DNA from: a virus
Taxonomy: Duplodnaviria > Caudoviricetes
Strand: one strand, 5' to 3'
Virus record (IMG/VR): IMGVR_UViG_3300013105_000003
Coordinates: 61,232-125,231 of that record
DNA: 64,000 bases
Below the pieces are notes generated by a model. That model worked only from the letters and a program-made list of their open reading frames with translations. It was not told the DNA's origin and made no database searches. Each line of letters opens with the position of its first letter. Position 1 is the stretch's first letter. Below are positions 30,821 through 54,642 of this stretch, piece by piece. Both the position numbers and the translations under genes were made by a program.

Positions 30821-30871
30821 ACTTTACTCCGTCCATAAGGTCAAGTCAACACTCCGTCTCACATCGTGGAC
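30821..30871 (-). promoter_or_regulatory. SigA-type promoter with upstream IclR-like palindrome
   Basis: Minus strand GTCCACGATGTGAGAC-N6-TTGACT-N17-TAAAGT. Confidence 0.7.
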
Positions 30872-31719: not shown

Positions 31720-32388
31720 ATGGAACAATATCCTATGACTAAGCCTCTACTATTAGATTTGTTTTGCTGTTCTGGAGGGAGTGCTGTCGGATATAGTAGA
31801 GCAGGTTTTACGGTAATAGGTGTAGACATTGATCCTATCTTGTCAGCTGATTATCCATATGAAATACACCACGGTGATGCTTTAGAATTCTTAAAAAGCT
31901 ACGGTGGAGATTTTGACGTTATCCATGCGTCTCCACCGTGCCAATCAAGCTCAGCACTCACTAAGGGCACCAATAAAGGCAGACAATACTTAGACCTAAT
32001 CCCTCAAACTAGGGAATTACTAGCAACGTTCAATGTACCTACGGTAATAGAAAATGTGCAAGGCGCTAAGGTACGGAGAGACTTAACCCTATGCGGTGAA
32101 ATGTTTAGCTTAGGTGTGCTACGGCATAGGTATTTTGAGATAGAAAACGCTACGGTGGAAGTGCCAGAGCACAAGGCACACCGTGGACGTGTTAGAGGTT
32201 GGAGACACGGTAAGTACTACGATGGTCCTTATGTTGCTGTCTACGGATTAGGTGGTGGAAAAGGTACGGTCCAAGAATGGCAGCAGGCTATGGGTATAGA
32301 CTGGACAGACAATCGTAAGTCTCTGGCCGAGAGCATACCTCCTGCCTATACGGAGTACATAGGTAATAGTTTAATAAAATCTATATAG
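31720..32388 (+). CDS. C5-cytosine DNA methyltransferase-like protein (start may be 31735)
   Basis: LLDLFCCSGG, HASPPCQ, VIENV, LCGEMF, RHRYFE, E(S)IPPAY motifs. Confidence 0.85.
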   Translation: MEQYPMTKPLLLDLFCCSGGSAVGYSRAGFTVIGVDIDPILSADYPYEIHHGDALEFLKSYGGDFDVIHASPPCQSSSALTKGTNKGRQYLDLIPQTRELLATFNVPTVIENVQGAKVRRDLTLCGEMFSLGVLRHRYFEIENATVEVPEHKAHRGRVRGWRHGKYYDGPYVAVYGLGGGKGTVQEWQQAMGIDWTDNRKSLAESIPPAYTEYIGNSLIKSI

Positions 32389-32411
32389 CCGGCCTATGTA
32401 TCCTGGCAAGA

Positions 32412-32463
32412 AAAAGGCACACACCGTAGAGAGAGGATTAGTAACCTACGGTGTGTGCCTTTT
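32412..32463. terminator. Bidirectional terminator
   Basis: AAAAGGCACACACCGTAG...CTACGGTGTGTGCCTTTT. Confidence 0.75.
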
Positions 32464-32577
32464 CTATAATGTGGTGATTAGTAACACTCAACCGAACCAT
32501 AGGCATTATGGCACTCTCACCCAATCCGCGTAGTGAGCTATTACTAATTCTTATGTCACGGAACACACCACAAATCT

Positions 32578-32892
32578 TTAAATACTCCTATGAGCAATTC
32601 CTGAGTTAGTGTACGGTCCGTACCTATCAATGGTGGAAAGCATGTTAGACCTACCTACGGGATTAGCACTGTGAACGCGAATAGCTACGGTGGGAAAGTT
32701 CCCAGACTCTGCCATGTAATCTACTAGCGCCGTACCGTCTCCACCATCGTAGGCAAACTCCCCTAGATCATGGTCTAGGCTAGCGTGAGTCACGGTGCCA
32801 GTCTCCAGGATACGGATAGCCTCACGGACAGACTTAGCATGCACCCAATTATCAGGGCACGGACGGATATCGTCTAACCATAGTTTTGTCAT
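32578..32892 (-). CDS. Cyclic-phosphate-processing receiver-domain protein
   Basis: LWLDD.RP.P..W, SLDHDLG, VHSANPVG motifs. Confidence 0.8.
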   Translation of the reverse strand: MTKLWLDDIRPCPDNWVHAKSVREAIRILETGTVTHASLDHDLGEFAYDGGDGTALVDYMAESGNFPTVAIRVHSANPVGRSNMLSTIDRYGPYTNSGIAHRSI

Positions 32893-33436
32893 TAGCTTTC
32901 ACCTTATTTAGAAGGTCTTTAGTTATGCTTTCCAGTGCATCCACAAATAGTCATACGGTAAGGGTTTTTACAATTACAATCTCCAGGACAAAAACAGCCT
33001 GTCTCTAGTCTAACATCTTCCATTAGAAGATAACCTCCGCATTACTCTCTGCAGCAAAGTCACGGACCCATGCACGGTCCAACTTTTCACCATTGCCAAA
33101 CCGACTAACGTTAAAGCCACCGTAGGCAGCAGTTTTACTATAGATAAATACCTTACCGTCACCTTCAACAAATGAGAGTCTAATGTCCTTTCCGCTGGGA
33201 AAAGTCACGGTGGCATAAATGGTACGCTTAGTCATTTTACTTTCCGCCCCACATAGTAGTAAGTTTGTCTGCTGTCATGGTACGGTGCAGAGCATTACCA
33301 ATCGGGCGGTAACAATCAAGGCATATTCCTCCGGGAAAGACAGCCAACTCGCTAATGGTATTCTTACACATAGTGCAATTAACCTTACGGTCGATAAGTT
33401 CCATTATTTCATATCCTCTCAGTTGTGTTTCTGTCC

Positions 33437-34865
33437 CTTAGTGGACAATGCATAGCCTAGCACACAGGTCTAGGCTACACACAATGCACTAAGTTCTAAT
33501 CCTTCCAAACGTTGGGACGGTTACGCAATTTGTAAAACTTAGGGTAACGATACCGTGACCATAAGTTGCGGAATACAGTAATCACATTTTTAGCTCCTCT
33601 CATTTGTTTGTCCTTAGTGGACAACTACCGACACGGTACCATGTATCCGTGTCGGAAGCAATGCACTAAGAATTATCAAATTTTAAATTTAATGCCGGCT
33701 ATATACCTCTCATGATATACTAAACTAGGGAATTCAATCGGTGCCAAGAATCAATTGGCTTTTCATTGTCGTAATAACGAACGGTAACACGCCGTAGGAT
33801 AGCAGAACAATCCTTATTTGTGCATTCCTGCACCGAATAAGAATTAGTAACGCTAAAGCCTTTAAAAGACCACTTGTGTTGTTTATGATCCTTTGCTGTA
33901 CCGTCGATCAACTTAGCGTAACGGTCTCCGAACGTCCACACAAAATGATGATAGTCGAAATAATCTCGCGTAGACATTAGGGGGTCGGTACGGTAAAGCA
34001 TTTCGATAAACACGCCCCATTCGTCAAACGTTGCGGCTCGGTAATCATTACCGTTAGACATACGCGACGAATTACCGGACAGCTTAATTTCCCATGCTTT
34101 ATCATGAGTACGCGAACGATGCTCCGTAGCGGTCTCCAGTGTGACACCTGCCACCGTGGCGGCATTGTCGATAACGCTACTGTCTACCGTAGAGCTAGTG
34201 TGAAAACGCATTGTATAATCCTCTCATGGTTTGCCCTTAGTGGACAATTCCGACCATAGTTTTAGCTATGGTCGAAACAATTCACTAAGAATTCAATCTT
34301 CTTCCACTAGGTTATTAACGATAGTGGAATGAGTAAACCCATAACTATCGAGTAACTTAGATATTTCTTTTTCAATTGCGACAGACTCCCAACCAGAACA
34401 CTCTACCGAAAAGGCTATTTCATACATGTTATTCTCTGGCATTATGTAATCCTCTCATATGGCTACGGTGCATCAATTGATTGATACAATACCTAATACA
34501 TTCCCAGGAATGCACTAGATACAATGCCAATTAACTAACACGGACAGAACCACAACGGCGTGTCGCAGAACGGACAACGTTTGCGGTCTGTCATGTGCTC
34601 TCGCGTCGGTTCAAATGACGCGAGCGTGTCACTCATGCCATTACGAACAGTGGCACGATTACGCCGCCTCTGCTGCCTTTTCGCAATGGTAACTGCTCGC
34701 CCAATAGCACGCGATTCACGCGAGTTAGAGCGCCACTTGCCATCGTTAAGAGACAACTCAACACGCTTAGCTGTCAAGGTAGACATAGTGTAATCCTCTC
34801 ATTTTAGGCGTTTATTAACGCAATTTCACTAACGGATTGCTCCGTTAATGAAACAATGCTAATAA
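33437..34865 (-). repeat. Five intergenic long hairpins with a conserved ATTG/ATTG internal loop, each followed by a TGAGAGGA SD leader
   Basis: 33437-33493, 33613-33670, 34236-34289, 34473-34534, 34812-34865; G-U pairs favour the minus strand. Confidence 0.75.
33720..34211 (-). CDS. Hypothetical early protein
   Basis: GAGAGGA SD; AATFDEWG.F...L motif. Confidence 0.7.
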   Translation of the reverse strand: MRFHTSSTVDSSVIDNAATVAGVTLETATEHRSRTHDKAWEIKLSGNSSRMSNGNDYRAATFDEWGVFIEMLYRTDPLMSTRDYFDYHHFVWTFGDRYAKLIDGTAKDHKQHKWSFKGFSVTNSYSVQECTNKDCSAILRRVTVRYYDNEKPIDSWHRLNSLV

Positions 34866-35576
34866 CTCACCTGCCTATCTTTATAGCTATCCACGTTCCG
34901 ATTGCCATTATTAGAGCAATGACTACAGGATTAGTTAGCATTAAATAGCCTTAGTAAAGATATGGTATTGGCGCGGCGTAGTGTTTAGGTACTCACGTCC
35001 GGCATTGATAGCTGCAACGCGCATAACACTATACCGACGACAAATGTCCGCAACCTCTGAGAATAGCGGAGTATCGTCAATATCTGACAACTCACTAACG
35101 CTAAGCTTTGTAAGATTAATCATTGGGTATCCTCTCATTGTGCTAATTGGTTAATGCCAAACCGCACCGAAAAGGCTACGGTGTGACATTAAACAATTAG
35201 AAATGTTTCATGAGATAAGGATTATTCCACTATTCAAGAATCAAATAACTAGCGTGAAAGATACTCACTCCGAACTAATCGGATATCTAACACTTATTAG
35301 GTTGTGAATTGGGCGCTTAGCTAGTGGTGGATTCTTATTACTAGCCATTGTCATTTATACACGCGACCTAACTACTGTCTGGCACACCTACGCCTGGACC
35401 CAATTCTATTAAGTTTTTACCTTTAATTAGACCTTTAGTTAGTTACTGCCTTTTACTTATCTTGCAATACCGGACAACCTAGCACGTTTAGAGACTATGG
35501 TCAATCCCTCTCGCCATGCGATATTAGCGGGATATCTGTAGTGTCTCCGTATTGTGTTGTTTTTCCGATAGGCAGA

Positions 35577-35637
35577 ACATTACCGGCACTTGTGGAGTCT
35601 GTCTAGCCCTGTCTCAAAACATCTCATATCGTGAGAT
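35577..35637 (-). promoter_or_regulatory. Leftward early promoter with IclR-like palindrome
   Basis: Minus strand ATCTCACGATATGAGAT-N15-TAGACA-N17-TAATGT; a second leftward promoter TTGACC-N17-TAGGTT lies at about 35476-35504. Confidence 0.7.
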
Positions 35638-35787
35638 GCATAGGCCGGCTATACAACCTGGAACCGTTGCAATTGCAACGAATTTGGTCACTTTGTACCA
35701 ATCTTTGTACTAGCCGGCCCGGTCCTGTCTTATCTGCGCATACACGCGAATAGCAGACACTAGGGCAGACTGTCAAGGTCTAGGCTA

Positions 35788-35843
35788 TGTGACGTAGGTC
35801 ACACTGTAGAGACTTGACACTCCGTAGCGGCATGCCTTAAGTT
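35788..35843 (+). promoter_or_regulatory. Promoter with perfect CRP/GlxR box
   Basis: TGTGA-CGTAGG-TCACA, 10 nt, TTGACA-N18-TAAGTT. Confidence 0.8.
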
Positions 35844-35885
35844 TCTCATATCGGAACAAAACACAACCAAACGAAAGGCAAAACA

Positions 35886-36257
35886 ATGGCAAACTCTAAT
35901 GCGGTCCGTGCATGGGCATCTACTCACACCGACGAGGCCGGAAAGCCTTATGCACTCGCAAACTCTCGCGGTCGATTGGCATTCGATGCGATCAAGGCAT
36001 TCAATGATGCACATCCCGACGACCCTTACAACGTGTCGGAGAACGTACCTCCGTCGCAGCTTTATACGCCGCGAGTTGTGAGCGTTAAGACTTTCAAGTC
36101 TGGCACTTCCAAGTCTGGCAAGACTTATAAAGTGCCGGTAACTAAGTCTGTGAATCTGGCAGACTTCCGAACGTGGGCCGTCGCTCAAGGTCACAAGGTC
36201 GGAGCGCGTGGGCGTGTCTCGCGTGAGTTGCTGGAGAGTTACGCCGCTACTGTCTGA
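35886..36257 (+). CDS. lsr2: Lsr2-like protein made of two DNA-binding (RGR) domains, without the oligomerisation domain
   Basis: AVRAWA...NSRGRL...AFNDAH and FRTWA..QG.KVGARGRVS....Y. Confidence 0.8.
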   Translation: MANSNAVRAWASTHTDEAGKPYALANSRGRLAFDAIKAFNDAHPDDPYNVSENVPPSQLYTPRVVSVKTFKSGTSKSGKTYKVPVTKSVNLADFRTWAVAQGHKVGARGRVSRELLESYAATV

Positions 36258-36267
36258 CAGTAGGGCA

Positions 36268-36314
36268 GGATTAGCCTAAATGGTAGGTTTATCGGTTCGA
36301 TTCCGACTAATCCA
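36268..36314 (+). ncRNA. 47-nt mini-tRNA-like element lacking the anticodon arm
   Basis: GGATTAG/CTAATCC+A acceptor, CCTA-AATGG-TAGG hairpin, TCGG-TTCGATT-CCGA T arm. Confidence 0.55.
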
Positions 36315-37231
36315 CTAGGCGATCCCGTACTAATGCGATTACTGACATTAGGCGACGATTGCCACCAATTTACAAACAATTGCACCAAATGAGAGGATTA
36401 GGGTAATGGTCAAGTATCTTGAATTTGAGAGTGTGCAAGGATTCCAAATTACGCTCAAAACTCCACGTAATCCTAGCGTTAGCGGATATGGGCGAAAGAT
36501 TCCGACTAGCGGAATGGTTAACTATAATGGTCGCTGGCACCGTGTCTACGTTATGAATTACGGAAATTCTGGCAGTGCATACATTGTCAGTAAAGGTCAA
36601 GAATTGTTCTTGGATATTGACACCGAATACATCTATCAAGGTGTCACGCCGAATTCTTGGAAATGAAAGGATTTAACTAATGGATTACTCACTTTATGAA
36701 TGGTCACGCGATAAGGCTAATGGTACAGTCTCCGTTACTTATTTCAATGGAAGTGGAGCAACTAGGCAAGGCGCAGACGTTATCGCACGTAGCCTAATCC
36801 CTAATGCAAGGCTTTACGCGAAAGGTGAGACTTTCGGCGTGGCGGGTAAGAATCTCAGACTATATTGGGACATTGAAAGGATTAGCTAATGGCAACGCTT
36901 TACGATGAAACAAATATGCGCAAAACTCCAGGGAATTGGAAGAATCTTTTCGAGCTACTGGTAACGGAGTATATGAGACATCCTCACATTAAGCGATTAG
37001 CACTAAAGTCTAAAAGTGGTGCGGAACGTTCCGCTTATGCCACTTGCAAGAATCAGACACGCGGAGGGTATGGCATTTATACAGGGACAAAACGACTAAG
37101 GCTAGAATTGTCAGAATCAGAACTAATCGAATTCAATGAGGAATATCCCTTACCAGAGTAAAGGATCAAACTAATGAGAGTGCAGCGGAGGCATTCGCAG
37201 ACATGGAAGTGCGAGAGTACCCGCTGCCGTA

Positions 37232-37282
37232 GTCTCACGATGTGAGACGCTACTAGACACACTGGAGTCTGTCCGGTAATGT
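37232..37282 (+). promoter_or_regulatory. Promoter with IclR-like palindrome
   Basis: GTCTCACGATGTGAGAC-N5-TAGACA-N17-TAATGT; same arrangement at 38645-38694 (N16-TAAAAT). Confidence 0.75.
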
Positions 37283-39688
37283 CTTCTATATCAACAAAAA
37301 CACTCCACTACCTAGTTAAAGGATGAAACCATGCAACTCTCAAACTATGGCCGCGCGGAATTGTCAGACTTGGATCATGTTTACCTGACAATGGAAGACA
37401 TTAGGGAAATTGCGGACAACGATCCCGATTCTCATTGGTTTAATTCGCTTAAGCCATTTGGAGTTAGTGAGCAATCACTCTCCAGTGTCGTGAAAGTTTC
37501 CGCGACCGAATACCGTTTTGTCTGCCGAGAATATGACTCATTTGACCAGACCACTAAGTCATATCGAGTGCATTCTGTGAAATTGTCGGTAGGGTATCGT
37601 GGGAAGTCTCCGGAAAGTCTGCGCACCTATTGGCGTGCCAATGTGAGCGCGTGCAGTGATCCGGAATCGGATCGAACCTATTTCAGCACGCGGAAGGCAG
37701 CAGAAAAGGCACTGCCGAACCTAGTCCGCGATTTCGATTAGTCGAATTGTTTCACTAACGGGTAATCCTCCGTTATCCGTTAGTGGAATTGTTCACCTAA
37801 TCAACCAATGATTGAAAGTAGGTTAGACAATGTACGAAGCACTCATTGCACAGGCATTCCAACAAGCATATGACTACAAGCGCCAAACATATCCAAATTT
37901 GGATATGTGGGATTATATCTCAGAGCATATTTACCAATATGGAAATGACCGACGTTATAAGCTGCATTTACTGGCAGCTAGCACTAGTTTTAGGTCTGCT
38001 CTTGTCAAGTATCATGGTATCAGCTATTACGTAGATCATGACTACCCAACTAACACATATTCGGTAACTCGCCGGATTAGGTAAGTCACTGGAATAGACA
38101 TATAACTAACGACATGTTTAATCGACGTAATCCCAAATTGACCATAAAGCGCCGTATTAAGATAGTGCAGCACCATTACAACGAAATGACGCGAGCTGCA
38201 CTAAATGACGCGCTAACCTACGAACAGAAACAATCCGAGATAACTCACCATGCTCTAATGGTGGAGAAATACAAGACAGAACTTTTCTACACAAACGATT
38301 GAAAAGGAATAAAAATATGCGTACAGCCCTGGAATTGGCACTAATGGAAATTGCGTCGGTAGGTATGGCATGGGAAGGGGAGAACGACTCACCGACCGGA
38401 AGTTTTGCGCTCATTACCATTAATGACGAGACGCGTAGCGATCCATGCGAGGATATCGACGCTAACGATTGGCTACAGTCCACTACTGGAGAGGTTCACT
38501 ACATCATCCAATGGGACTCTAACGGCCAAACGTGGGTAACAGAGCATGACAACGCGCACGACGCCAGCTCACACCTAGCAGAGCTAACGGCAGAATATTA
38601 CGCGTGGGATTATCAAGGTGTGGACGATCTAGCTATCTAGGGTAGTCTCACGATGTGAGACGCTACTAGACAGACTCAAAAAACACTGTAAAATCTCAAC
38701 TATGCTAAAGACATTCGGAGTCCTCGCCACCCTCGCAGCTATCGCGCTAGGTCTGTATTTTGCGCCCAGCGCGATAGCTGCACATTTCGACCACACTTCA
38801 GTCTCCTACGTCAGTAGTTCAACACTCGACGCAAAGCTAGCGCGCAATGCTCACAGTGTTGCAACGCGCGGAGGTGCATTTCTAGACAATGCCGATATCT
38901 CACGCGCTAACATCGTTTCAGCTCACCAAACGGAGGTTAAGTAATGTTTAGGGTAGTGAGAGACAATAGCACGACAACTAGTGACGTAGAGACTAGCCTC
39001 AGTCTTAATGATGCTAGGGAGTTGGCAGAGTTACATGCGAGTGAGCACGCGGAACGAATTGACGTTAGCTATTGGCAAGTAGGCTTCAGTAGCGACGCAT
39101 TTAGATTTATTACCAATAACGGGACAACTGTAACCTATAAGGTCGAAAAGGATGAAACGAAATGACCATGTATGCGATTGTTATTAGTTCGGTACGACTG
39201 ACTAAGGACGGATATTCGTCAAGTAGGCAGACGCCTACGTTTTACCTTGATTCTAAAGTGCAAGGGATTGTAAATGCTAAACATGCCGCATTGATTGCGC
39301 TAGACATAGCTAACACATTCCACGCTACAGAAAACAATGAGAGGATTAGTGTCTACGCGATTAACAATGACGATGGAACCGACAACTATCATATGGGATG
39401 GAAGGATGAAACGAAATGAAAGACTATGAGCTGCCTACACTAGCAGAACGTGCCGACATTGTGGAACGTGCAAACTCTCGCGGATTCACTTTTAGTGGAC
39501 ATCCTGCAGTCTTGGCAGGCTATAACCTGCCATACCCTCGCGTGCATGTTAAGGGATTCACTAGCGGAGGTGCAGAGGTGTCATGGTACCTAGCAGAGCG
39601 TCTAGCGTCTGGAGAGACTACTAACGTAAACGGGTAGGGCAAGAGACACGCGAGGACGTAGTTAGCGCGTTAGAGAGTGCGTCCAAGG

Positions 39689-39743
39689 TGTGACGTAGGT
39701 CACACTGTAGAGACTTGACTTTGCCAGACTCTGCACTTAGGTT
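39689..39743 (+). promoter_or_regulatory. Second promoter with an identical CRP/GlxR box
   Basis: TGTGACGTAGGTCACA, 10 nt, TTGACT-N17-TAGGTT; leader TCATATCGGAACAAAA shared with the 35788 promoter and 41024. Confidence 0.8.
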
Positions 39744-40833
39744 TGGTCATATCGGAACAAAACACAAGACCAGAGCTATTCTACCCAAACGATTGAAAAG
39801 GATTAAAAATATGCGTACTTCCCTGGAATTGGCACTAATGGAAATTGCTTCAATCGGCATGGCATGGAAAGCTACTGACTTGACCAATGAATCCCTCATT
39901 GCTCTCATGTCGTGCGATTGGGAGGGAGAAGGTCTCTCACTTTACATGATGGGACTAATCCAAGAAGAGTTCAACGCACGTAACCTTTCCAACTGAGAAA
40001 AGGATATGTAATGGAACACCGAATCAAGAGCACTACTCACAACTTTTCTAGTGTCGTCATTAACTGCACATGTGGAGCTAACTTTACCGGAAACTCATAT
40101 GAGGCAGAGTACAACGACGTAAACGAACGGCAGGCATTGGGAGAGTTCCGCTCACACGTAAGCCTGCAGGCTCGCATGGCGATTGCAAGGATCTGTAATG
40201 GGAACGTCTAAAGGATCGACAACGCGCGTTATTGACTCTGGCGAGTTACCTAGTGACTCCACACCGAAACAATGTTTTTGGGGGTGTGGGTACACTACAC
40301 TACGCACAACGCGCAAATTTAATGCACTAGATCAATTGGTGACAGTGCCAGAGTGCGGATACTGCGCCCATGATATCGAATTAGCTGATTCTGTCCGCTC
40401 TGTATGAATCGAAAGGATATAACGAAATGAGTTTAACGCTTAGGGAACGTGCACAATGTGCAATGATTGACGGACTAATGTTCGGCGATTGGTTCGACAC
40501 GCGCAATTGGGTAGACGATGAAAAGGATTCTGCTCTGCCTAAGTCATACGAGATTAGGGTGTTAGAAGATTCTGACGAACTAATCCCTATGACAGAATGG
40601 CGAAAGGTTACGCCGCGTGACATTACTAAGGCACTCCGTTACATAGCGTCGGCTGGCAACCCTGCTAACCTAACTGATGACATTGTGGAATCGTGCAAGG
40701 CATTCTTGAATGATCCTGATTCTGCTGCAGCTAGTCGTTTCGATTCAATTTGTGCCGATGCTGCACTCCAGATAATCACGATGGGAAAGGTCGAATTTGG
40801 TTAGCCTAGGCAGGTGAGCCATTGTCGGGAGAC

Positions 40834-40852
40834 ATAGGTTAGGCTAACCTCA
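40834..40852. promoter_or_regulatory. IdeR/DtxR-family iron box
   Basis: ATAGGTTAGGCTAACCTCA, 17/19 to consensus TTAGGTTAGGCTAACCTAA. Confidence 0.7.
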
Positions 40853-42196
40853 CTTTACCAGGACTGTACCATCCTTTGTACCATGCCCTGGAGCGCCGGC
40901 CTAGATACATAGTTGTCCTATGCAACTAATTATGTACTAGTACAAACAAGTGTGCGACTGTCCACGATGTGAGACAGCTCCAGACAGGAACTAGACAACC
41001 TACTGTCTGTCATGCTTAGATACTCATATCGGAACAAAAACAAGCGGAGGGCTAAGACAATGAACAACATTCTCGCAATCTATCGGGTAGGCGGAGCAGT
41101 CCTCACGTTGTCTCACACGTTCACAGACACACCTAAGTATCAGGTGCATGTCAATGAAACGTTGCTAATGTCCTCACATGAGTTTGGAATGGTGGAGCCA
41201 TTCTATTACGAGACATTGCAAGATTACGCGGTTGATGAAATTCAACCTACTCGAATTTTCGTTAACTACTGACAACTAGTAGCCTTTCCCATTGTCGGGA
41301 GACATAGGGAACATCGAAAGGATTAGGTAATGGAAAATATCTATATCGTTCGTCTGGTCAAAGATGGGATTGACGGAGCTATCGTCGGAGTATTCCGCAA
41401 TGAGTCCGACGCGAGGTCGGAATGTGCTAGACAGAATGCCGACAATTTCGTTGGCTGTCTGTCTGAAGTGCAGCGTTATAACGTAATCTAAATGCCTTGC
41501 ATTTATCCGATCTAGTATCGGGTAAGTGTTGGATATTTAGAAAACATCGAAAGGATTAGGTAATGGGAACAAAAGTAATGGCAATTGTAGAATCTCCCAC
41601 TAACGGAGAAATTTACGCGATTCCCTTTGCTAATCAGTTTGCAGCTCAAGATTGGGCAGATAAGCATGATAACGAAATTCTCACTATTGCCATTTATCCA
41701 CTAAGCAACGCGCGCGCAATGCTCGCAATGATCGAAAAGGATTAACGAAATGTCACACTCTACAGATATTGTCGGATATACCTACAAGGCAGACAATTAC
41801 TGCACTGGTTGCATTATCGACGCATTGCCTACTGGGGAGGGTGAGGAATTCGATGGATGGAAACTAACTAGCGGCATTCGTATGTCTACCGAGAAGAATC
41901 TGACAGAGCTTGCCTACGCGTTCGGCATTGATCGGAACGACGAATATTCGTTTGACTCTAGCGAATTCCCTAAAGTCATATTTGCTTACATGCTAGATGG
42001 TCCGCACTACTGCAGTAACTGTCGATGCGAACTAGTTTGGTAGCTAGCGCAGGCAGGCAGGCAGGCAGGGACAGAGCTGGCAGGCTAGGACGTTGGAATC
42101 CTGCCAGCCTTGGCTAGTTTCGTCGGTAGGGTTGCGCTGCAGCTGGGAAGGTGTACACTGAGACACAACACACCGACACAAGCGGAGGGCAGTCTC

Positions 42197-43375
42197 ATGG
42201 CAACCTACACACTTTCACCGGCAGAGTTTGCACTCACTGTTGAAAAACTCGCCAAGGTCAATGAGCGGGCAGAGCGTAAGGGATTCACCGGCAGAGTCTC
42301 TGTTAGTGGTCGGACTGAGACGCGCAAAGATGACTTTGGCTATACTTACGCCGTTGTCGTCACTGAGATTATCGGAGACGCCCCGAAATACAATGGATGG
42401 GAGTTTCTGGCAGCAGTAGACACAGTGGGAGACAATTTCGTTATCCGTGGCGCTGCAGGGACAGACATAGACAACATTGATCGGTCAATGCTTAAGGCTG
42501 GACAGTGCCAGCACTGTAACATCGAAAAGTCTAACCGAATTCACACCTACCTAGTTCGCAATGAATCGGGAGAATTTAAGCAGGTTGGCTCTACGTGCAT
42601 TCGTGATTTCCTTGGCTTGAATATCTTCCCTGGAATGATTCTAGAGTCTGACGTAGACGAAATTGTCGGAGGCTTTAGCGGCATGGCGCGTGAGTACACT
42701 CCGGAAACAATTGTCTCTGTCGCATGTGCTGCAGTTAAGAAGTTTGGTTATGTTTCATCGCAGGTGTGGGAACGTGAGAGCACGCGCACAACTGTAGAAC
42801 GTTTTCTATACCCTGCTTCGCAAGGTCAAGCACAAAAGGATGATCTTGCGTTGCACGCTGAGCTGTCTCCGCTAGTTGATACTGACAAAGCGGAGACAAT
42901 CATCGAAACGCTCACAAGTGCATTCTCAGACAGGGGAGGATATCAAGGTAACCTTTACGCCGTTCTGTCAGGTGACGTGGTGACTTCCAAACATATGGGC
43001 ATTGCAGTCTCTGCCGTCATTGCTTATGACAAACTAGTGGAAGGTAACAGGCAAGCTGCAGTCTGGGCAGATGAAAAGGCAGCACGCGAGGCTAAGGCAG
43101 CATCTATCGACTACGTAGGGACAATCGGAGAAAAGATTACTATTACCGGAATCGTTTCTAAGAATATGGTAATCGAAACTATGTATGGCTTTAGTCATCT
43201 CGTCATTGTGGAAGGTGACAATTTCGTCGCTAAAATGTTCACTACTGCAGGATGGTCGGAGAGTGATTCTGCCGACGTAGATAAGACAGTTACTCTCACT
43301 GGAACAGTCAAGGCACATGACGAATACAATGGCACTAAGCAGACAGTCCTCACTAGGGCAAAGCTAGTCAAGTAG
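42197..43375 (+). CDS. Conserved early phage protein with Zn motif (CQHC...VGSTC) and C-terminal OB fold
   Basis: GGAGG SD before ATG 42197; G.IGEKI...GTVK.HDEY.G.KQT.LTR OB-fold pattern. Confidence 0.75.
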   Translation: MATYTLSPAEFALTVEKLAKVNERAERKGFTGRVSVSGRTETRKDDFGYTYAVVVTEIIGDAPKYNGWEFLAAVDTVGDNFVIRGAAGTDIDNIDRSMLKAGQCQHCNIEKSNRIHTYLVRNESGEFKQVGSTCIRDFLGLNIFPGMILESDVDEIVGGFSGMAREYTPETIVSVACAAVKKFGYVSSQVWERESTRTTVERFLYPASQGQAQKDDLALHAELSPLVDTDKAETIIETLTSAFSDRGGYQGNLYAVLSGDVVTSKHMGIAVSAVIAYDKLVEGNRQAAVWADEKAAREAKAASIDYVGTIGEKITITGIVSKNMVIETMYGFSHLVIVEGDNFVAKMFTTAGWSESDSADVDKTVTLTGTVKAHDEYNGTKQTVLTRAKLVK

Positions 43376-43387
43376 TTTTTACTAGAT

Positions 43388-43424
43388 AAGGCACTAGGTA
43401 ACTAACACTTACCTAGTGCCTTTT
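43388..43424 (+). terminator. Intrinsic terminator
   Basis: AAGGCACTAGGTAA...TTACCTAGTGCCTTTT. Confidence 0.8.
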
Positions 43425-43439
43425 CGTATGCCCATATAT

Positions 43440-44510
43440 AGGCATTCCCTGCAGAGCACGTCCCTAGATCCTTCCCTAGTGCCCTCTGTATCCCTGCCCT
43501 GTATCCCTGCCCTCACACGTTCCCTAGTGCTCTCATATGTGCCTATATGCGCGCGTGAGAGCACCTCTGCCTATACAGGCCCACCTAGTAGCCTGCCTAA
43601 GCTAATAGATCCTCACAAGCGCATACATGAGCACACACACACATGAGCACATGAGCTGAGACACTGCAGCACACAAGCAACTAATCATAATGATAATCAT
43701 TATCAATGCACTTAGCATGAGACACTGCTATGTGTCAATGATATTTCTTAATGAGTATCAATCTCATTAGAGCTAACATATGCATGTATGTGTTGTCAAG
43801 TGCATGCACACAATCAATCTAAAGTCAAGTCTCATATCTCTAAGCACATAGTCTAATGTTTGTCAATGCAGCTAGCTAAGTCTCTGCACTGATTGAGTCA
43901 ATCTCATGTAAGCCTGTCTAACGCGCTAACTCTGACGCAATGACTCATGATGCCTAAACGCTCTACAACTCTCTTAGATTGGCTCTCATGAGTTTCTAAG
44001 ATACTTTCAAGGCTTTAGAGACTCTCAACACTGCAGCAGACACGCGAGACAGAGTGATTACACCTATCTCTAACGCACGCGTACGCGAATAGCAGCTAGG
44101 TAGGTATCTGTCAAGGGAAAAGTCCAGGAGATTCCCATAACAGTAAAATTTCCTGTTGTCAAGTGTTTTAGCAGGAAATTCTGAAAATATTCTCGAATAG
44201 CATATGAAAGATTTACTGTCAAGCCGCTAGCACACAATAAAATGTATGTCAATAGGTTGGCGTGAGTTAATTTCTTTTCATGATGTGAGCTATGTTTGAA
44301 AATAATATAACATAGGCCGGCTATGGTGTTATTTAAAACATAGGCCGGCAATATATCTAGAGAGCACAATCTCCTGGCTTTGTCAAGTGCTAGAAATTAT
44401 GAGTTTATCCCTGCCCCAATTTGCGAGTAATTCCCATGCAATTGTCTATAAAAATGCCCCCGGGGTGAACCAGTAAATGAATTGATTTTATTTGGGGCCG
44501 GGTGTCCGTT
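43440..44510. repeat. Non-coding repeat-rich region, probable genome end / packaging region
   Basis: Periodic CCCT tract, CTCAT/ATGAG repeats, TGTCAA array, CCCCCGGGG at about 44457, between convergent gene blocks. Confidence 0.55.
43687..43705. promoter_or_regulatory. Fur/Zur-family box
   Basis: ATAATGATAATCATTATC matches 18/19 of GATAATGATAATCATTATC; perfect 7-1-7 TGATAAT-C-ATTATCA. Confidence 0.7.
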
Positions 44511-44562
44511 GTGGGACAACTCTAAATTTTAGTGCTAGGGAGTAATATAAACATATTAATAA

Positions 44563-54333: not shown

Positions 54334-54558
54334 AATACTCTATTCTTTTGTAGTTACTAGTTTACCACACTGACTTACTTCTGTCAACCAAGTCCTAGAT
54401 TTTCTACTTCGTCAGGACTAAGCTGCTCCGTTGATTCATTGTCATACCAATAATCATCGTTATTTCTCTCTACTCTGAGAATATTTCCACTTTCATCTGT
54501 GTATACATTCTCAGTGTACAGGTACTGGCGAACTTGCAAGTATACTATCTTTTCCATG

Positions 54559-54642
54559 CTCTCCTGGGTGGACTTGAACCACCGACCCATGCCCGAGGCT
54601 AGTTTCCTAGGCAGGCTGCTCTACCGACTGAGCTACAGAAGA
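54559..54642 (-). tRNA. tRNA-like RNA with no anticodon (loop replaced by a GAAA-tetraloop hairpin)
   Basis: TCTTCTG/CAGGAGA acceptor, intact D and T arms, GCCTG-C-CTAG-GAAA-CTAG-CCT-CGGGC. Confidence 0.75.

Follow-up and report, generated by a model that had tools for sequence, protein, structure and literature searches.

Does the non-coding DNA in front of an early phage gene block hold a battery of operators for unrelated host regulators, or is it a promoter region of a more familiar kind? The question is raised by a spacer free of open reading frames (ORFs), here called array 2, in the stretch of DNA that we analyzed ('the window'), which is the final 64 kb of a 125,231 bp IMG/VR virus record (IMGVR_UViG_3300013105_000003; 44.8% GC, with a 123 bp terminal repeat); coordinates below are those of the window. 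A sequence-only reading had described seven motifs within 140 bp of array 2 as back-to-back consensus sites for unrelated host regulators, and as a candidate new system. All seven are indeed present where that reading placed them, but only one fits a host consensus, while three are private to the phage lineage and two lie at chance level. Array 2 is no new system but a spacer for early control, and it probably includes a single operator for the host's iron repressor. On balance we lean toward regarding it as an ordinary transcription-control spacer before the second rightward early gene block, one that would give host-state input into early transcription; sensing of host state was among the functions originally proposed, and it is the one that we favor.

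The element that bears most on this interpretation is an IdeR/DtxR-type iron box (Table 1). The site, ATAGGTTAGGCTAACCTCA, agrees with the consensus TTAGGTTAGGCTAACCTAA at 17 of 19 positions, as had been claimed for it, with both mismatches in the flanks, so that its core AGGTTAGGCTAACCT is matched at 15 of 15 positions and is a perfect palindrome. Read as the 19 bp interrupted palindrome TTAGGTTAGSCTAACCTAA, the stretch 40834-40852 likewise agrees at 17 of 19. It is the sole site in the genome with two or fewer mismatches to the iron-box consensus, the next best having 4-5, and an equally good match was reached in 2/300 and 0/150 Markov-1 simulated genomes (2/450 together). The consensus is that of actinobacterial IdeR, DtxR and DmdR1. 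Natural DmdR1 sites include ...CCTcA, that is, the same flank deviation as in the box at 40834 (PMC7174319).

The main argument against a chance likeness is the contrast between coding and non-coding placement in IMG/VR. The IdeR core occurs there at 10 loci, eight of them without a covering ORF longer than 52 aa, whereas a control palindrome of reverse order occurs at 76 loci and lies within an ORF of at least 100 aa at 75 of them. Because the core is non-coding in 8/10 loci while the control is coding in 75/76, perfect IdeR cores on phage DNA appear to be selected, non-coding features common to unrelated phages. Several of these core sites also have complete TT...AA flanks, and no DtxR gene was found on five other box-bearing viral contigs. 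Four related IMG/VR contigs (44-48% GC) each have a pair of full-consensus iron boxes, TTAGGTTAGGCTAACCTAA and TTAGGTTAGCCTAACCTAA, set exactly 85 bp from one another in DNA free of ORFs; these double-box contigs are without a DtxR gene, and have no genes in common with this phage.

Two further kinds of host-type box stand out from the same early region. We compared a panel of 14 regulator consensus motifs, with strings documented in PMC7174319, PMC4254451 and PMC10665472, to 150 simulated genomes, and only the IdeR motif (40834), a Fur-type motif (43691) and the CRP/GlxR-type motif TGTGANNTANNTCACA (35788 and 39689) exceeded chance. LexA, Rex, DosR, McbR, NrdR, CIRCE, HAIR, AmtR, RicR, DnaA and the actinobacterial Zur box were all at or below it. 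It is important to note that these eleven control motifs were picked after the three matches had already been flagged, and so provide a contrast rather than a blind screen. The Fur-type box, a perfect 7-1-7 palindrome equaled in 0/150 simulated genomes, agrees with the classical 19 bp Fur box at 18 of 19 positions and sits just downstream of a minus-strand TTGACA-N18-TAAGTG element; it is of the Bacillus/Gram-negative type, with 2 mismatches to the actinobacterial Zur box. The IdeR, Fur-type and 39689 CRP boxes fall in the ORF-free 4-9% of the genome, and the 35788 CRP box in a divergent intergenic region, where its sole overlap is with a presumably spurious minus-strand frame that runs antisense to an Lsr2 gene. 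No DtxR, Fur or CRP-family gene is encoded by the phage. Together these results support the view that its early non-coding DNA bears consensus-grade boxes of three host-type global regulators that the phage does not itself encode. The several host consensus sites that the sequence-only reading supposed to lie within the 140 bp of array 2 are not there.

The setting of these boxes becomes clearer from the promoters around them. Seven promoter-like units can be aligned into an early family, with the form T[TA]GAC[AT], a 16-19 nt spacer and a TAnnnT-like hexamer. A palindrome that we call M1 lies upstream of the -35 hexamer in five of the seven, immediately so in three and about one helical turn farther away in two; in the other two units, at 35814 and 39715, the CRP/GlxR box TGTGACGTAGGTCACA stands in its place, 10 nt upstream of the -35. 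These two CRP-box promoters have diverged in their spacers but have kept the -10 and leader, the latter (CTCATATCGGAACAAAA) being common to three units (35845, 39746 and 41023). The right third of array 2 (40958-41059) is predicted to be a sigma-A-type promoter-like unit, aligning with the promoters at 35814-35843 and 39715-39743. Both of those are better matches; with its off-consensus -10, the unit in array 2 could be weak or could depend on the binding of a factor.

Conservation could be assessed in array 1, the divergent early control region at 35350-35885, for which the counterpart in a relative was found on a 1.6 kb contig by way of a 60%-identical Lsr2 homologue. Motif columns were fixed beforehand from this genome's own repeats, and cover M1, CATAGGCCGGCTAT, a 16 bp palindrome, the TGTACY pair, GCCGGCC, TGTCAAG, the CRP half-sites and the hexamers of both promoters. 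These columns are identical at 100 of 106 positions (94%), against 76 of 164 (46%) for the remaining columns. The CATAGGCCGGCTAT motif is kept at 14/14 positions and M1 at 14/15, while the TGTACY pair retains its 12 bp phase even though its 6 nt spacer has been rewritten. Judging from this conservation, the shared M1, CATAGGCCGGCTAT and TGTACY-pair families are under selection. The relative's CRP box (836-851 of its contig) keeps TGTGA, TCACA, the central TA and the 10 nt distance to the -35, with two spacer bases differing, and the CRP boxes alone are boxes of a non-phage regulator that hold a fixed early-promoter position and are also kept in a relative.

Arrays 1 and 2 share a layout. In array 1 the TGTACY pair comes 21.5 nt after the center of the 16 bp palindrome and is itself followed by GCCGGCC; in array 2 the center of the IdeR-like palindrome precedes the pair by 22 nt, with GCCGGCC coming 12 nt after the pair. 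The iron box thus fills the 'palindrome slot' of a recurring module. The proposal that the TGTACC repeats of array 2 share a 12 bp phase with those of array 1 also holds, since TGTACC-N6-TGTACC has its sole exact match in the window in array 2 and its one-mismatch match in array 1 (35694).

Other sources of comparison were less productive. A search of 5.8 billion proteins gave no homologue for the gene upstream of array 2, and no close relative was found in the phage collection searched (megablast, blastn), or in IMG/VR by means of two flanking proteins. Homologues of a 421 aa protein encoded downstream were considered as possible relatives and set aside, their contigs being unrelated (56-62% GC) and without synteny or motifs; this protein has no PDB or Pfam match, and its atlas matches are viral hypothetical proteins only. 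Microbacterium phage Magritte was too distant for footprinting (63.7% GC, with a different layout). Assemblies in ENA contain a relative of 44% GC that runs collinear with the 51-64 kb part of the window, but all of its contigs end before the early region. Searches by pattern returned 19 IMG/VR matches to a 16-mer of the leader and 2 metagenome matches to an array 1 composite, all of them unrelated.

Most of what remains in array 2 belongs to motif families of the phage itself. Four TGTACYA units fall within an 80 bp span in array 2, a density matched by 0/5000 random placements (P < 2e-4). GCCGGC has 7 copies in 125 kb, all of them at 32388-44344 (0/20000), and each is embedded in CATAGGCCGGCTAT or something close to it. 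We considered whether these might be survivors of restriction avoidance, but the count of 7 fits a Markov expectation of 5.5, and therefore the signal lies in clustering and context, not in count. A C5-cytosine DNA methyltransferase gene (PF00145, 31720-32388) ends exactly at one of the seven sites; if GCCGGC were the target of this enzyme, it would mark the control elements. The M1 variant of array 2, CTGTCCACGATGTGAGAC, is an 18-mer found in identical form at 30856 on the minus strand, and the M1 family form TCTCACGATGTGAGA has copies at 37233 and 38646 and a copy differing at one base at 35622, in each case just upstream of a -35. In IMG/VR outside this phage, M1 falls in ORFs at 34 of 35 places and CATAGGCCGGCTAT at 24 of 27, so that elsewhere they behave like chance words; M1 and M3 are private to this phage lineage.

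The remaining labels given to array 2 fare differently from the iron box. The 'MarR-like' repeat exists, but it does not exceed chance and matches no MarR consensus: inverted repeats with 6 bp arms number 4 raw matches (3 independent) in the region versus 0.8 in shuffles, and as this P of 0.02 is region-wide, no single repeat is notable. The 12 bp palindrome at 40933 is also real, although taken alone it is not above chance (P about 0.05-0.06). What was called a weak LexA-like site can be found, but at a chance level of agreement; the genome's best match to a LexA box has 3 mismatches and occurs at 23 places, which is worse than most simulated genomes. The 'IclR-like' box is likewise present and matches no IclR consensus, being the lineage palindrome M1. 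The MarR and IclR labels amount only to 'palindrome'.

Table 1. Features of array 2, with related elements of the surrounding early region (window coordinates).
Feature	Position	Strand	Remarks
Palindrome CGTTGCAATTGCAACG, 16 bp, perfect	35665..35680		Array 1; 15/16 kept in relative
CRP/GlxR-type box TGTGACGTAGGTCACA	35788..35803		Array 1; perfect match to TGTGANNTANNTCACA, 10 nt upstream of -35 TTGACA
CRP/GlxR-type box, identical	39689..39704		In 31 nt block shared with 35788; block includes -35
Array 2, ORF-free spacer, 255 bp	40805..41059		Between ORF 40427-40804 and ORF 41060-41272
20-mer CCATTGTCGGGAGACATAGG, copy 1	40819..40838	+	Last bases ATAGG are left edge of IdeR-like box
IdeR/DtxR-type iron box ATAGGTTAGGCTAACCTCA	40834..40852		Perfect palindromic core 40836-40850
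Direct repeat TGTACC-N6-TGTACC, 12 bp phase	40865..40882	+	
CATAGGCCGGCTAT family copy	40893..40906	-	AGCGCCGGCCTAGA on + strand; GCCGGC at 40895
Inverted repeat TAGTTG-N7-CAACTA ('MarR-like')	40910..40928		Sole copy; no consensus matched
Palindrome TGTACTAGTACA	40933..40944		Two inverted TGTACTA units of TGTACYA family
'LexA-like' CAAAC-N4-GTGCG	40943..40956		9/12 to TCGAAC-N4-GTTCGA
Promoter-linked palindrome M1, variant CTGTCCACGATGTGAGAC	40958..40975	+	Contains 'IclR-like' GTCCACGATGTGAGAC, 40960-40975
Promoter-like core	40992..41022	+	-35 TAGACA 40992-40997; 18/19 nt spacer; -10 TTAGAT/TAGATA 41016-41022
Conserved leader CTCATATCGGAACAAAA	41023..41039	+	Exact at 35845; one mismatch at 39746
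Shine-Dalgarno GGAGGG and ATG of ORF 41060-41272	41046..41062	+	Product 70 aa, no known family
20-mer CCATTGTCGGGAGACATAGG, copy 2, exact	41289..41308	+	0 expected by chance
Fur-type 7-1-7 box TGATAATCATTATCA, perfect	43691..43705		ORF-free, in 1.2 kb ORF-poor region

How might such a spacer work? We hypothesize that iron-loaded host IdeR/DtxR dimers bind 40834-40852. The box lies in ORF-free DNA, and the hexamers that overlap it are weak: TTGTCG-N17-TAACCT on the plus strand, which would place a -10 inside the box, and TGgTAAAGT on the minus strand, abutting it. Bound repressor could shut a weak rightward promoter of the former kind or, alternatively, a weak opposite-strand promoter of the latter kind, or the box might instead stand in the way of read-through that originates in the upstream operon or at the promoter at 39715. 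The downstream early genes would in this way be expressed according to host iron status, with the CRP/GlxR boxes (35788, 39689) and the Fur-type box (43691) as further host-state inputs, and with the lineage-specific motifs bound by other factors, either phage or host. It is tempting to extend this to a scheme in which early transcription is wired jointly to three host sensors (a DtxR-type iron repressor, a Fur-type metal repressor and cAMP-CRP) through a modular cassette of dimer palindrome, TGTACY pair and CATAGGCCGGCTAT with a swappable palindrome slot, whose replicated boxes could also drain the regulators and derepress host iron uptake; we offer this stronger version tentatively, as a possibility that is rather doubtful.

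Several observations count against reading array 2 as a host-responsive control spacer. From the box it is 207 nt downstream to the next start codon and about 170 nt to the clear promoter-like unit, and the promoter proposed to overlap it matches 8/12 hexamer positions, a level common by chance. The clear unit itself has an off-consensus -10 (TAGATA, with no final T) and a long spacer. No orthologue of array 2 was recovered and its upstream gene lacks homologues; Magritte has no box at three or fewer mismatches, though it is very distant. A GC content of 44.8% is low for an actinobacterial phage. Finally, the box takes its left 5 bases from a 20-mer that is found again elsewhere with no box attached, and many windows were scanned, so that an event of 0.5% per genome will arise by chance somewhere.

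These last two points weigh in favor of an explanation in which all elements of array 2, the 15 bp palindrome included, serve phage-encoded early proteins or nothing at all, the likeness to an IdeR site being coincidental. Such an arrangement also gains from the fact that most motifs of the array are lineage-private and kept in the relative, and about 30 early ORFs without a known family could hide the DNA-binding proteins required. It is nevertheless hard to reconcile with the exactness of the core, since the chance that a functional palindrome would have the exact IdeR core is about 1 in 16,000, with the presence of the same core outside coding sequence in several unrelated viral contigs lacking a DtxR gene, or with two more host-type consensus boxes that beat chance in the same early region. 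We consider it unlikely, while granting that it is the most serious of the alternatives to host input. A different use of the same boxes, titration of host repressors, was suggested by the sequence-only reading. As phage DNA replicates, the number of IdeR, Fur-type and CRP boxes would rise and the host regulators would be titrated, with derepression of iron, metal and carbon regulons to the advantage of the phage. Consensus sites bind tightly, those found here are consensus-grade and belong to three regulators that the phage does not encode, and a phage ribonucleotide reductase (RNR) might conceivably need iron. However, one IdeR, one Fur-type and two CRP boxes in 125 kb, with no tandem arrays, make a meager sponge, and the CRP boxes, fixed 10 nt from an early -35 with a spacing kept in the relative, have a regulatory geometry. 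Titration is therefore improbable as the function of array 2, though it may yet play some part late in infection, when genome copies are many. Ratcheting of DNA into the cell and shielding from nucleases, also raised originally, find no supporting indication.

Array 2 might alternatively be a platform for proteins that do not act in transcription, its repeats marking an origin of replication, a packaging site or a partition-like site. Helically phased direct repeats and several palindromes in ORF-free DNA are suggestive of this, as is the existence of two paralogous arrays. Yet the spacer, at about 47% GC, has no AT-rich unwinding stretch, no excess of DnaA boxes and only two iteron-like repeats; it lies directly upstream of a promoter-like unit, its paralogue is a divergent early promoter region, and the genome ends with their terminal repeat are about 23 kb away. 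We give this roughly the same low standing as titration, if marginally higher. Least probable of all is that the spacer acts as RNA, whether as a structured 5' leader or as a site for processing of a read-through transcript. The 20-mer does hold a 4 bp hairpin with a GGGA loop, positioned after stop codons at both of its copies, and no terminator separates the upstream gene from the spacer. Against this, the 1 nt center of the IdeR palindrome is unsuited to an RNA hairpin, folding of the spacer is not unusual (z = -0.9 and -1.3), and Rfam returned no match for it even at E = 1. With no terminator-like site in the spacer, no unusual fold and no Rfam match, the elements of array 2 most likely act on DNA.

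The two copies of the 20-mer bracket a 470 bp unit composed of array 2 and ORF 41060-41272. Recombination between them would fuse ORF 40427-40804 to the ribosome site of ORF 41330-41491, which gives the unit the look of a self-contained gene cassette that has been inserted (a 'moron'). The ORF-poor region that holds the Fur-type box (43380-44560, 1.2 kb) is the meeting point of the rightward and leftward gene blocks; it also contains about nine TGTCAA (TTGACA on the minus strand), two CATAGGCCGGC, an M1-like element at 44276, and short direct repeats (CTGTATCCCTGCC twice and TTCCCTAGTGC three times).

The genome has a siphovirus gene set, with a 2962 aa tape measure, portal, large terminase, PolA-type polymerase, helicase and RNR, and its small rightward early genes run from 35886 to about 43400. 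Its closest cultured relative is Magritte (portal 34.5%, polymerase 27.7% identity). A probable actinobacterial host is indicated by this relationship, by the Lsr2 DNA-binding domain that ORF 35886-36257 carries, and by homologues of one early protein in Propionibacteriaceae and Cellulomonas; RNR homologues in GTDB genomes gave no host identification. No tyrosine or serine integrase was found in the genome, and the phage therefore looks lytic. A sigma-70-family gene is present in the other half of the genome, and since the phage has this sigma factor of its own, its early promoters must rely on host RNA polymerase. The phage thus looks lytic, with early genes transcribed by the host enzyme. 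N4-like hairpin promoters, brought to mind by the sequence GTCTCAC-GAT-GTGAGAC, were dismissed given the absence of a giant virion RNA polymerase from what is, by its tape measure, a siphovirus.

Some other features of the genome deserve mention. Palindromic hexamers are strongly avoided genome-wide, all 64 together totaling 1251 copies versus 2014 expected. Twelve are absent, with 16-36 expected of each (CCGCGG, CGGCCG, GGCGCC, GGGCCC, AGCGCT, AGGCCT, CCATGG, CTCGAG, GAGCTC, TCGCGA, ATCGAT and TTCGAA), and eight more are at 1-2 copies, which points to heavy restriction pressure by the host. Among the leftward early genes, ORF 32578-32892 on the minus strand encodes a 104 aa protein with a cREC_REC domain (cyclic-phosphate processing receiver, PF20274, E = 8e-28). 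There are also RNA-repair-type genes as in the relative (RNA ligase, PNKP) and odd tRNA-like genes. ARAGORN called a tRNA with a CTA anticodon ('Pyl'/amber suppressor type) at 54558-54642. This raised the question of stop-codon recoding, but neither TAG=Q nor TGA=W gave any useful lengthening of ORFs.

Array 2 probably belongs to a known kind of element, in which phage promoters are wired to host global regulators. The corynephage tox operator is a phage-borne site that is served by the host repressor DtxR. Control of tox by DtxR is also mentioned in PMC13001254. The box at 40834 resembles actinobacterial IdeR/DtxR/DmdR1 iron boxes in its 17/19 identity, perfect 15 bp core, non-coding position and natural CCTCA flank (PMC7174319); it differs from such boxes, the tox operator included, in standing 207 nt from a start codon, in an apparently lytic phage, ahead of genes without known function. 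Another parallel is provided by the lytic Bacillus phages phi29 and Nf, in which host Spo0A boxes at early promoters allow the physiological state of the host to gate early transcription (PMC2731898). The phage studied here would likewise be a lytic phage with sites for host global regulators at early promoters, as predicted from the sequence, with the difference that sensors of iron, metal and cAMP take the place of a sporulation master regulator, and that there are one or two boxes for each.

The sister promoters at 35814 and 39715 in turn resemble CRP/GlxR class I-type sites (TGTGANNTANNTCACA; PMC4254451) in that a perfect box precedes their -35 by 10 nt, whereas array 2 has no CRP box and carries M1 in that place beside its -35. 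The distance from box center to transcription start, with the start itself inferred, is about -53 to -55, which is not a classical position in E. coli. The lineage motifs have a different precedent. The gp71 'stoperators' of mycobacteriophage L5 and the C1 operators of phage P1 are repeated operators of phage-encoded regulators. M1, CATAGGCCGGCTAT and TGTACYA are similar to them in being short, promoter-tied motifs of a lineage that are spread across an early region, but here no cognate phage repressor is identified, copies are few (4-7) and confined to about 14 kb, and there is no lysogeny module.

If a host iron repressor does bind the box, array 2 would be a case of a lytic phage reading the iron status of its host at early promoters, and if the sister boxes are also bound, host cAMP and metal status would be read in the same manner. 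Good documentation of such control exists for phi29, through Spo0A, and for the toxin genes that temperate phages carry, whereas lytic phages of actinobacteria offer hardly any. The analysis also indicates how 'operator arrays' noticed by eye can be sorted: a host-type box can be told from lineage signals and from noise by looking for copies within the genome, by asking whether the motif is coding or non-coding in other viral contigs, and by footprinting with a relative. Beyond the iron box itself, M1, CATAGGCCGGCTAT and the TGTACY pair define an uncharacterized early-promoter grammar for this group of phages.

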